A stretch of DNA of 64,000 bases from a virus. This document shows positions 1,160-32,346 of this stretch, piece after piece. Position 1 is the stretch's first letter; the number at the start of each line of letters is the position of its first letter. The DNA lies in the IMG/VR virus record IMGVR_UViG_3300020204_000007, positions 105,060 through 169,059 of that record; one strand, given 5' to 3'. The notes under the pieces are model-generated. The model made no database searches. It worked only from the letters and a program-made list of their open reading frames with translations, and was not told the origin of the DNA. The position numbers and the translations under genes are program-made.

Positions 1160-1597
1160 CTATTCGGCAGTCTCCAAGTCTCGTAGTTCGCCAAAACACA
1201 GATGAGGCTGGCTATTGGCGATTCTTTTGGTTTCTTCCTTGCCATATTGCTCTACCATTTCTGCCTTTAGTTGTTTAAGATTAACCAACGCCTTTTCTCG
1301 GGCGCGTTCTTCTTTCCAATACGCATTACCTTCTGCGGCATTATGATAACTAACTTGGTTGATTGCTGCTAGAAATTGATCAATAAGTTGTTGGCTCATA
1401 ATATTCTCCTATGGTTATTCATCAAAGTTAATATCGTCGGCATCAATATAGCCACTACTGATCACGCTGTCAATAGCTTCTTCAATATCCTGCTCTTCCA
1501 CATCAACCAACTCGACAATATAGTCTATTTGTTTGTCGGTCAATTTAACTGTGTATCTTCTTTTAAGGGTGCTAATAACTTCTTGCTTGGTGTTCAT
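1160..1597 (-). other. two small hypothetical early genes (1415-1597, 1160-1399)
   Basis: AGGAG RBS, downstream of the 1620-1645 promoter. Confidence 0.75.
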
Positions 1598-1619
1598 ATG
1601 CTGTTCCTCCTACATAACA

Positions 1620-1645
1620 TATCGGAACAACCAAATCTAACTTTA
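1620..1645 (-). promoter_or_regulatory. sigma-28-type promoter
   Basis: TAAAGTTAGATTTGGTTGTTCCGATA on the minus strand. Confidence 0.8.
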
Positions 1646-2108
1646 GGGGTTTTTTATTTGTCGAATATCATTTTTTATATGGCAAATTAGTCTATTAAGA
1701 TGCTATAATAGAAGTAACATCTACTCATTTCGCCCTCATAAATTGGGGGTTTTTCTGTTTACGGCATAAAAAAAAGAAGACTTTTAAGATGTAGCGTCTT
1801 GGGAGTAGTCAAGATGCACCTAGGTTGAAGTCACTTCCAGACGTTATTCCTAAGACGTTACGCCCAGAATAATAACGCTTCAAAGCGCTTAAATGAATCG
1901 ATTAGATTGTTTGCCTCGATGTTAGGTGCATTACCACCTAATGGAATCTGCTGTTGGGTTAGAACTCCTAAAAGAATAAAGGCCGTTCCGCTATGACCCA
2001 ATGTGTACACTAATAATGTGTTGCAGTATTCTCGAACATATCCCTTAGCCCCTCTGTATTTATATTACTAGACGCCATAATTATGATTCGCAATTTATTA
2101 TTTTCCAC

Positions 2109-2134
2109 TAAAGTTTGATTTGGTTGTTCCGATA
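2109..2134 (+). promoter_or_regulatory. sigma-28-type promoter
   Basis: TAAAGTTTGATTTGGTTGTTCCGATA. Confidence 0.8.
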
Positions 2135-2188
2135 TGGAAATGTAGGGCAGCAATGGTAACGAGTCCTATAAATGAGGGGGGAAATATT

Positions 2189-30434: not shown

Positions 30435-31541
30435 ATGAGTCGTTTTGATAATATTTTCCTCGCCCATCACCGCACAAAGTTGCCATTGATTTTGTGGGGT
30501 TCTTCCGGCTACGGCAAATCCTCTACAGTTAAAGGTTTTTGCCAACGTCACAATTACCGCCTTGTTGACAAACGTACTGTGTTTATTGATCCGCTTGAAA
30601 TTCAATTGCCAGTTAAGAATGAAACCGAACACGTTGTTGATTTGTGGCCTGCTCGTTGGCTCCATGAACTTTGCAAAAGCAATGAACCTACCGTCCTGTT
30701 TTTGGATGAGCTTAATCGTCCTAACAGTCTCCAAACACTTAATATGTTGACTCAGTTGCTGCTTGACCGCGAGTTGAACGGTATCCGACTTCCTGAGAAT
30801 GTGTTGGTAATTGCTGCGGGTAACCTTGACACTGAAGATACTGGTGTACAAGAACTTCCCGATGCAGTCATTAACCGCTTGACTCACTTGGTTTTTGCTC
30901 CCGATGAGTTTGAAATTATGGGCAATATGCAAAGTAAACTTGCACAAGAAGCCCTTAAACTCAATCCTAAAATTGTTGGCAAACCCGGTCTTCCTGAACT
31001 TAAACTGAAAAATTGTCCACGCCAAATTGATGCTGCGGTTCAGTTGTGGGAAACTGAACTACTTAATGAGGAGGAACTCGCTCTTGTATGTCGCGGTCGT
31101 TTAGGCAATGAATCCGGCAATATTCTTGCCAGTACGTTGATCCAAATTAAACGCAAAGAAGAATTTAAGCTCCCACGCAAAGTTTTGCCTGAACTGTTCG
31201 AGAAAATTTCCCAATGCGAGCAGGAAGGTATGATCATTGAAATTGTTTCGTTGTTCAAATCCGAGCTACAGTCGCATGAAGGCAAACGTACATTGAAGAA
31301 ACTTGAGCGGCATATTTCTGATTACTTGCTGCAATATGGTTCGCCTGAGCTTGCTCGCTCCATGCAAGAAGCTAAGTTTGCTTTCCGCTATGACCAAACT
31401 GAGTTTCCGGTGGATAAAGACAACAATCCGTTCAAAGATATGCGGCCTGAAAAAGAAGGAGCCGAAGTTAAAGATACTGGTTTGCCGTGGCAGCTCTATG
31501 CTTTGAAGCTTGGTAAGCTGTCGCCAAAAGATCGCTCCTAA
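30435..31541 (+). CDS. MoxR-like AAA+ ATPase
   Basis: GSSGYGKS, LFLDELNR, IAAGN, NR arginine finger. Confidence 0.85.
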   Translation: MSRFDNIFLAHHRTKLPLILWGSSGYGKSSTVKGFCQRHNYRLVDKRTVFIDPLEIQLPVKNETEHVVDLWPARWLHELCKSNEPTVLFLDELNRPNSLQTLNMLTQLLLDRELNGIRLPENVLVIAAGNLDTEDTGVQELPDAVINRLTHLVFAPDEFEIMGNMQSKLAQEALKLNPKIVGKPGLPELKLKNCPRQIDAAVQLWETELLNEEELALVCRGRLGNESGNILASTLIQIKRKEEFKLPRKVLPELFEKISQCEQEGMIIEIVSLFKSELQSHEGKRTLKKLERHISDYLLQYGSPELARSMQEAKFAFRYDQTEFPVDKDNNPFKDMRPEKEGAEVKDTGLPWQLYALKLGKLSPKDRS

Positions 31542-31571
31542 TAAGAGCGGTGTGTGTTGTACCCCTTCTCT

Positions 31572-31602
31572 GCCCTGTCCGTGTTACACGGGCAGGGCTT
31601 TT
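31572..31602 (+). terminator. intrinsic terminator
   Basis: GCCCTGTCCGTG..CACGGGCAGGGC followed by TTTT. Confidence 0.65.
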
Positions 31603-31616
31603 GATTCGAGGTTTTT

Positions 31617-32318
31617 ATGAAAATGTTTCCTGTTTTATTGACCACTGTTTTAGTCGCTTCTAATGTTGCATTTTTTCATTTGTTTCAGTTTGAAAAAGAA
31701 AAAACTTTTTCTCTTCAACAACAAGTACAAACAAGCGAAGAAAACAATGCGCGGATATTAAAAGAACAAAAAGAAAAAACACAATTTATTGAATTTGTGA
31801 GTACTGCTATTGCTCTTGCTGCTCCTAAGTCATCCGAATCCAAAAATGCTTATCTAGGTTCGCAAATTGTTAGAGTTGGTTTAGACTCGTTTAGCGATAA
31901 AGAAGAACGTGAAACATGGGTTGCAATTTTAGCCAACGAAAGTCGATTCAACCCAAAAGCTAAATCACCTGTGGGTGCTATTGGTATCGGTCAAATTATG
32001 CCTAAATCTGCAAAATGGTATGCAGAAAAATGTAACCTGCCCACTGATTTTACCGATGAAGACCTGTATCTTGTTGAAATAAACCTTACTATCTCGGCCT
32101 GCGCATTCAAAGAAATGCTTAAGAATGTAAATAATTCTAAAATTCTTGCTCTTATTTCATATAATGCAGGTCAATTTTCCAAAGATCTAAAACGTGTAGA
32201 GCAAATGGCAAATATCAATCAAGAAACTGCCAATTATGTCACAAAAATCACTCGGTTTTTAGAAAAAGTGCGCGACAATCCTGCTATTAAGTTAGATCCC
32301 AAAACTTCCGATAAATAA
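31617..32318 (+). CDS. lytic transglycosylase (SLT domain) with N-terminal membrane anchor
   Basis: ESRFNP..SPVGAIGIGQIMP..SYNAG. Confidence 0.85.
   Translation: MKMFPVLLTTVLVASNVAFFHLFQFEKEKTFSLQQQVQTSEENNARILKEQKEKTQFIEFVSTAIALAAPKSSESKNAYLGSQIVRVGLDSFSDKEERETWVAILANESRFNPKAKSPVGAIGIGQIMPKSAKWYAEKCNLPTDFTDEDLYLVEINLTISACAFKEMLKNVNNSKILALISYNAGQFSKDLKRVEQMANINQETANYVTKITRFLEKVRDNPAIKLDPKTSDK
32288..32313 (+). promoter_or_regulatory. sigma-28-type promoter variant in the SLT 3' end
   Basis: TAAGTTAGATCCCAAAACTTCCGATA. Confidence 0.65.
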
Positions 32319-32346
32319 TATGGGACAATAATAAGGAGGAGAAGTT

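Follow-up and report, generated by a model that had tools for sequence, protein, structure and literature searches.

The window analyzed here, the final 64 kb of the 169,059-bp record of an uncultured virus (IMG/VR record IMGVR_UViG_3300020204_000007; G+C content 36%), raises the question of why one short sequence cassette should recur 19 times in a 30-kb block of small accessory genes and nucleotide-metabolism genes, most of them without an assigned family. The repeats might be simply promoters, or they might be joints at which genes are gained, lost, and exchanged. An earlier, sequence-only reading favored the latter, describing an integrase-free array of gene cassettes in which each joint supplies a stop codon, a promoter, and a ribosome-binding site (RBS). 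Comparison of the block with related phages suggests that the two roles are probably combined: the repeats appear to be promoter cassettes of the sigma-28 class that also act as joints for homologous recombination.

The shared core, TAAAGTTAGA-N10-CCGATA, is matched 18 times in the window when at most one mismatch is allowed, against 0.00 times across 100 shuffles; a 19th copy, at 32287, has an 11-nt spacer. A scan of the whole genome confines all 19 copies to genome 106.7–137.3 kb, which corresponds to window positions 1620–32313. Each copy is oriented with an RBS-preceded open reading frame (ORF), the start codon lying 46–80 nt past the T of TAAAG, and the 19 cassettes precede 19 gene groups, placed as heads of transcription units. 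A cassette comprises an A/T-rich upstream stretch, the promoter itself (TAAAGTTAGA, a 10-nt spacer, and (T)CCGATA(T/A)), a leader of 15–45 nt, and a Shine–Dalgarno (SD) sequence with its ATG. Two copies, at 27894 (minus strand) and at 32287, have TTAAG in place of TAAAG. Seven of the 19 leaders contain a 5′ hairpin, with predicted energies of −5 to −11 kcal/mol; none has a U-tract, and a terminator scan revealed no intrinsic terminators linked with the cassettes. A terminator function like that of the promoter–stem-loop (PeSL) cassettes of T4-type phages was considered and dropped on these grounds.

The phage represents a novel, uncultured, lytic-type lineage. The block has no match among 50,697 phage records searched by megablast and blastn, and the nearest helicases from cultured phages are 24–30% identical. 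Scanning IMG/VR for the exact motif gave 29 loci with one match apiece, which is the chance level, and scanning bacterial genomes gave, among the matches listed, singletons only, scattered over many phyla. Relatives were gathered by a motif scan of metagenomes and two protein searches. The metagenome scan returned 13 single-match loci, two of which (L053 and L054) proved to be relatives after the motif was relaxed; a search for related loci with the helicase as query found none, and one with an 808-aa protein found a shared domain only. In the resulting clade, L065 and L078 have 81–83% nucleotide identity to the window, L066 has 74%, and L080 and L081 about 70%; L079 likewise belongs to it. 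L067, part of a 164-kb contig, has about 54% amino acid identity to the window, and L053 is 93% identical to L067. All of the clade relatives bear the same cassette. Contigs L082–L086 were set aside, as they have one gene family in common with the window but are unrelated phages without cassettes. Independent metagenome samples (L071–L077, L087–L094) yielded the arrangement seen in the window at 99.99–100% identity, and the cassette layout with its twinned copies is therefore not an assembly artifact.

The core is predicted to be a promoter of the sigma-28/FliA class. The published consensus for promoters of the FliA/SigD/WhiG group is TAAAGTTT-n11-GCCGATAA (PMC2859248), and the contacts that sigma-28 makes with the −35 and −10 elements have been described from a structure (PMC12784957). 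The consensus of 18 window cassettes and 48 cassettes of relatives, TAAAGTTA-n11-TCCGATA(T/A), has boxes that fit the published one, the match in boxes and spacing being exact but for one mismatch in eight positions at −35 and two in eight at −10. The gap between the 8-mers is 11 nt in 18 of the 19 copies and 12 nt in the other. Matches resembling sigma-70 promoters occur in the block at chance frequency (76 versus 78.2 ± 8.9). The same consensus, including AGA and part of the spacer, is found in the 48 cassettes from L065, L078, L066, L079, L080, and L067, where AGA(TT) is invariant though leaders and genes have diverged. Since the core is the same across relatives, it would be kept by promoter function. 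The sequence-only reading had taken conservation of AGATT to exceed the needs of a sigma factor and so to imply common descent; this argument fails for the core, which is invariant among the relatives and apparently functional, but survives for the perfectly identical leaders discussed below.

We infer that the promoters are read by a sigma-28-type factor supplied by the host. Genome-wide searches found no FliA-like sigma factor in the phage, and no FliA_WhiG or Sigma70_r2 match; two weak Sigma70_r4 (region 4) matches lie in ORFs of no known function and without a PHROG family (genome 72973–73539 and 80696–81241, both on the minus strand). Both results tell against a sigma-28 assignment and would suit a different one, in which the conserved 26-mer is recognized by a phage-specific polymerase, sigma factor, or activator, or serves as an RNA-level signal such as a processing site, and its likeness to FliA promoters is convergent. 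Conservation of AGA at positions 8–10 and of parts of the spacer, beyond the bacterial consensus, also fits such an assignment. It is nonetheless quite improbable, given the near-exact fit to TAAAGTTT-n11-GCCGATAA in both boxes and spacing, and a bipartite conservation with variable spacer that is typical of sigma-type promoters. A search for a T7-type or other single-subunit RNA polymerase, the control for which was uninformative, gave no match.

A second promoter subfamily, TTAAGTTTACC-N10-ACCGATA, is represented by six copies at the left window edge and just before it: window 236–262 and 874–900, both on the minus strand, and genome 102168, 103453, 103951, and 104383, all on the plus strand. 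A 5′ hairpin, then an RBS and an ATG, lie downstream of every copy, and the 30 nt that flank several copies upstream are identical. In the relative L054, sigma-54-like TGGCA...TTGCT boxes stand immediately upstream of promoters of the TTAAGTTTACC type. Within the island of this subfamily, and spanning the window start, is an inverted gene duplication (window 435–824, minus strand; genome 104457–104864, plus strand) whose products have 58% amino acid identity over 128 residues. Counting the 19 cassettes and the six copies of the subfamily, about 25 promoters of sigma-28 type occur in a phage without a FliA gene, which is arguably the more surprising feature of the locus.

The 19 cassettes, referred to below by the first coordinate of each entry (1645 for the inverted copy), are listed here in window coordinates.

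1595-1645, minus strand: core at 1620-1645; drives the leftward gene 1415-1597; inverted near-copy of 3248 (45 nt identical, 1 mismatch, 10 identical).
2109-2191, plus strand: one core mismatch (TAAAGTTTGA); long leader with hairpin.
3248-3298, plus strand: precedes gene 3296-3535.
5173-5221, plus strand: precedes gene 5219-5530; the upstream gene encodes a 2OG-Fe(II) oxygenase in the window and is an 86-aa gene in L065.
6011-6086, plus strand: TAA is the stop of gene 5777-6013; 5′ hairpin in leader.
7190-7266, plus strand: begins 2 nt past the stop of gene 6985-7188; leader hairpin; converted towards the 6011 type.
8839-8894, plus strand: TAA ends the ClpP-like gene 8122-8841.
10845-10895, plus strand: TAA ends the Mom-like gene 10203-10847; relatives have a 119-aa gene between the cassette and the next small ORF.
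12177-12231, plus strand: begins 2 nt past the stop of gene 11810-12175.
13571-13626, plus strand: TAA is the stop of gene 13127-13573; 57 nt 100% identical to 14006; the L078 orthologue differs.
14006-14061, plus strand: begins 2 nt past the TGA stop of gene 13624-14004; 82% identical to its orthologue L078_493.
15444-15506, plus strand: TAA is the stop of gene 14967-15446; 67 nt identical to 16528; leader hairpin.
16118-16167, plus strand: TAA ends gene 15755-16120; bounds the single-gene unit 16165-16530 on the left.
16528-16590, plus strand: TAA is the stop of gene 16165-16530; twin of 15444; right border of the unit (one gene here, three in L080).
19491-19539, plus strand: TAA ends the dCMP-deaminase-like gene 18981-19493; precedes a GP88-family gene.
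21071-21138, plus strand: leader hairpin; precedes gene 21136-21363.
27839-27894, minus strand: reads TTAAGTTAGA; TAA ends the dUTPase-like gene 27891-28352; drives gene 27539-27841.
30368-30437, plus strand: leader hairpin; precedes the ATPase gene 30435-31541.
32287-32349, plus strand: 11-nt spacer, reads TTAAGTTAGA; precedes gene 32347-34071.

Evidence that these cassettes exchange sequence with one another comes from their leaders. Two pairs match perfectly, 15444 with 16528 over 67 nt and 13571 with 14006 over 57 nt; in each the identity runs from TAAAG exactly to just beyond the ATG. One base differs over 56 nt between 3248 and the inverted copy at 1645, and 66 of 77 positions agree between 6011 and 7190. 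The genes beside identical cassettes are not homologous to one another in an all-against-all blastp comparison. These duplications, and the dissimilarity of the downstream genes, had been noted in the sequence-only reading, and all of them were confirmed. Recent copying is implied solely by the perfect identity of the leaders.

Orthologous positions in the relatives reveal how the identity arose. Cassettes 13571 and 14006 agree at 55 of 55 positions over the aligned cassette, whereas their two orthologues in L078 are alike at merely 39 of 53. Because the 82% identity of 14006 to its L078 orthologue equals the genome-wide average, while the orthologue of 13571 differs, it is 13571 that seems to have been overwritten, and 14006 is the probable donor. 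Cassette 7190 is 86–87% identical to 6011 and to L065_1112, the orthologue of 6011, and 70–71% identical to its own positional orthologues. The pair that precedes genes 45 and 48 (15444 and 16528) is 100% identical within the window and 85% identical within L080; between the two genomes the figure is 74%. The two-gene unit 12787–13573 is an old duplicate of 13624–14532, with 26% amino acid identity, and the cassettes around the 13624–14532 unit are still identical. As judged from these alignments, the comparison shows cassettes overwriting each other by gene conversion. The idea that the cassette is itself a small mobile element was rejected: no flanking repeats were present at the junctions read, and the cassette at 14006, which lies between the paralogues, is old, being found also in L078 and L079.

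It could be argued that the cassettes are ordinary promoters with no role in recombination, and that selection for a strong promoter and RBS accounts for their likeness, the identical pairs included. Such selection does account for a core consensus that is equal across divergent relatives, and the enrichment of breakpoints at cassettes described below is statistically weak. Selection on promoter strength does not, however, explain 57–67 nt of perfect identity through leader positions that are free to vary in other cassettes and in orthologues. It also leaves unexplained the clustering, within a genome, of cassettes from non-orthologous positions, and the fact that in four of the insertions and deletions (indels) considered below the homology break coincides with the −10 edge or the SD sequence of a cassette. 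For these reasons it is highly unlikely that the cassettes are promoters and nothing more.

The placement of stop codons seems to have a simpler origin. As the sequence-only reading had stated, and as analysis of ORFs of at least 45 codons confirms, the TAA of the motif is the stop codon of the upstream gene in nine cases (6011, 8839, 10845, 13571, 15444, 16118, 16528, 19491, and, on the minus strand, 27891–27893), and the box begins 2 nt after a stop in three more (7190, 12177, and 14006, where the stops at −4 to −2 are TAA, TAA, and TGA). A tenth overlap, at 30368, was discarded, as it involves a spurious 87-codon frame overlapping a minus-strand gene. Upstream stops thus bunch at offsets 0 and −4. 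The motif TAA is used by 9 of 14 upstream genes in the window, compared with the one third expected from reading frame alone (p = 0.017), and by 20 of 44 in the relatives (p = 0.06); orthologous junctions at times differ in whether the upstream gene stops there. Because the −35 element of the sigma-28 class starts with TAA, any such promoter offers a stop in one frame, and in a tightly packed genome upstream genes will often end on it. We infer that the overlap is a by-product of tight packing rather than a purpose-built stop module.

Whether the cassettes also serve as joints for the gain and loss of genes was examined with 12 indels drawn from five pairwise comparisons of genomes with about 70–93% nucleotide identity, the pairs being non-independent. 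Seven of the 12 touch a cassette, two with both ends and five with one end. In the first two-cassette event, L067 has a cassette at 10718, a gene for a 203-aa 2OG-Fe(II) oxygenase, and another cassette at 11379; in L053 one cassette stands in place of all three, its left flank being that of 10718 and its right flank that of 11379. The arrangement in L067 was found again in three further assemblies. In the second, the window has one gene between 16118 and 16528, and L080 has, between 5490 and 6854, three paralogues, each followed by a cassette. The one-end events comprise replacement of the gene upstream of 5173, where homology between the window and L065 begins 21 nt ahead of TAAAG; the 119-aa gene that follows 10845 in relatives; an extra 112-aa gene with its cassette in L066; an 85-aa gene in L053 after the cassette that precedes GP88; and, in L067, a 196-aa oxygenase paralogue that separates the ClpP-like gene from a cassette. 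In a hand-curated table, 6 of 16 cassette junctions are broken, compared with 6 of 49 plain junctions (odds ratio 4.3, p = 0.034; p = 0.049 without double-counted events). Cassettes account for 9 of 23 breakpoints, where the baseline would give 22% (p = 0.048).

Several points weigh against the view of cassettes as joints in gene exchange. The remaining five indels touch no cassette and lie at plain gene junctions or within a gene; they involve genes of 42, 68, 71, and 86 aa and a 549-bp in-frame deletion in the Mom-like gene (window 10203–10847). In L065, the relative with 81% identity, the 549 bp are lost at 5528–5529, the first 42 and last approximately 54 nt are left, and the deletion stops 51 nt short of the cassette. 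Statistically, the excess of breakpoints at cassette junctions is borderline, with 12 events from five non-independent comparisons, and selection against operon breakage would produce the same excess without a recombination hot spot. The sole clean two-cassette event rests on one 7.5-kb metagenome contig, L053. Finally, deletion junctions across the identical pairs (gene 44 next to 48, and 42 next to 42′), the cassette-to-cassette junctions that the sequence-only reading had anticipated, were not seen in contigs from other metagenome samples, all of which have the standard order; this is a weak test, in that contigs display the majority genotype only. Short-read contigs do break within the 67-bp twin (15444–15510 and 16528–16594): L074, L076, and L077 end at 15473, and L089 and L090 start at 16565. 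Such breaks are expected of a repeat, and alternative junctions would hide there as well.

These data also bear on the possibility of dedicated shuffling of the PeSL type, in which genes would be gained, lost, and exchanged mainly by recombination from cassette to cassette, with circles of a gene plus its cassette as intermediates. The layout of the cassettes equals that of PeSLs; a gene flanked by two cassettes corresponds to a single cassette in a close relative (L067 and L053); and a cassette-bounded tandem array has changed in copy number. In addition, the variable 2OG-Fe(II) oxygenase genes always lie directly upstream of a cassette, in three contexts, and gene order in the block is strongly shuffled among relatives while the cassettes are near-identical throughout. 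The pattern of indels argues otherwise, however, since both ends lie in cassettes in just 2 of 12 and neither end does in 5 of 12. In distant pairs (the window compared with L079, L080, and L067), where shuffling is saturated, breaks are about equally frequent at plain and at cassette junctions. With no junction contigs found in other samples, dedicated shuffling as the main route seems unlikely. The proposal that cassettes are mobile joints therefore fares unevenly when relatives are aligned: cassettes are touched by most indels and weakly enriched for breakpoints, but few events run from one cassette to another. On present comparisons the cassettes would be frequent but non-exclusive joints, some 40% of gene-content differences apparently arising elsewhere.

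Some neighboring observations concern the variability of the block. Genes of the 2OG-Fe(II) oxygenase family (PF13759; window 4559–5152, L067 10766–11377 and 15883–16473) are its most variable genes, differing in presence or absence in three separate comparisons. L067 (4108–5761) and L053 have five tandem paralogues of a 70–85-aa gene with no cassettes between them; tandem expansion in the block therefore needs no cassettes. A 145-aa protein encoded at window 10987–11424 has homologues, 45–57% identical, in the cassette-free contigs L082–L086, which have 37–50% G+C and different replication modules, and its gene appears to move between phage lineages. Two helicase genes in the window, 22033–23418 on the minus strand and 60702–62153 on the plus strand, both match PHROG family phrog_16.

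The machinery for exchange can be narrowed to some extent. Searches of the genome for an integrase or resolvase (Phage_integrase, Resolvase; tyrosine or serine recombinase) gave no match, with positive controls, and a gene of the RecA/UvsX family lies outside the window at genome 40836–41924 on the minus strand (PF00154, 86 bits). The absence of an integrase or resolvase match, the RecA-family gene, and the homology breaks in cassettes together make homology-driven exchange the most economical explanation. The preferred reading, of sigma-28-class promoters that double as recombination joints, can then be put as follows. The 19 repeats would be promoter-leader cassettes heading the transcription units of the 30-kb block, their core kept by selection for promoter function. 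They would also constitute dispersed homology of 26–67 bp, on which general homologous recombination may act. Three outcomes would be expected. One cassette overwrites another by gene conversion, as the orthologue comparison shows; occasional recombination of one cassette with another would delete, insert, or duplicate the intervening gene or genes, as in the one clean indel and the one tandem array; and a cassette might serve as one end of a gene replacement, as in five indels.

Measured against this scheme, the integrase-free cassette array of the sequence-only reading is upheld in the lack of an integrase, the PeSL-like layout, the conversion of cassettes, the one clean two-cassette indel, and the array with one or three genes; it is not upheld as a general account, most indels not being of the two-cassette kind. 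A bolder version would treat each gene with its following cassette as a portable unit in a non-T4 lineage: the −35 box of the cassette would close the gene with a stop codon, and the cassette would equip the gene after it with a promoter and an RBS. Homologous recombination might excise, duplicate, or insert such units and carry them from one co-infecting phage to another, possibly as circles, and the whole block would depend for its expression on a host sigma factor of flagellar type. This version is conceivable, though we consider it doubtful.

The cassettes can be compared with several known systems. With bacterial sigma-28 promoters they share the −35 TAAA(GTT) box, the −10 CCGATA box, and the spacing. 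Bacterial promoters of this class serve late flagellar and chemotaxis genes, whereas those described here precede accessory genes of a phage with no recognizable FliA, and positions 8–10 (AGA) and part of the spacer are conserved as well. Integron arrays resemble the block in that small genes, mostly of a single function, stand in a row with a repeated joint between them, and in that gene content varies between relatives. In contrast to integrons, no match to an integrase (an IntI-type tyrosine recombinase) is found here, and the joint is not an attC site but a promoter, so that each unit has a promoter of its own; the units are often multi-gene, and exchange is apparently homology-dependent.

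The PeSLs are the usual example of a regulatory cassette with a second role as a recombination joint. To our knowledge, they have been described solely in T4-like phages, with sigma-70-type promoters. They are documented for the T4-type phages RB49 and phi1, T4 and PST, and KVP40 and nt-1 (Arbiol et al. 2010, PMC2839356; Comeau et al. 2014, PMC4122927). As in the PeSL layout (Fig. 2 legend of PMC2839356), a stop codon in an A/T-rich stretch is followed by a strong promoter, an SD sequence, and a start codon. Other similarities are the concentration of cassettes in a block of small genes of unknown function (here 30 kb of 169 kb), single-gene indels between close relatives, including a gene between two cassettes in one and a single cassette in the other, and exchange by general recombination in which no integrase is involved. 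The differences are equally clear. The promoter here is of sigma-28 type, in contrast to the sigma-70-type early promoter of PeSLs; the stop codon lies inside the −35 box; and the stem-loop is optional, lies in the leader, and has no U-tract or evident terminator function. There is no sign of a T4-like phage, a search for Gp23, with an uninformative control, having found no match. The system works like a PeSL but is not a member of the PeSL family, as both the sigma-70 promoter and the terminator stem-loop are absent.

The same logic as that of PeSLs thus recurs in an apparently unrelated, uncultured lineage of 169-kb phage, by way of an alternative-sigma promoter. The case adds comparative evidence in the form of gene conversion from cassette to cassette and one clean indel of a cassette-flanked gene. 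It supports the view that any strong promoter, once repeated many times in a packed phage genome, turns into a joint for shuffling, and the roughly 40% of indels that occur elsewhere set a measured limit on that view. The new element here is a promoter of sigma-28 type whose −35 box contains the stop codon.

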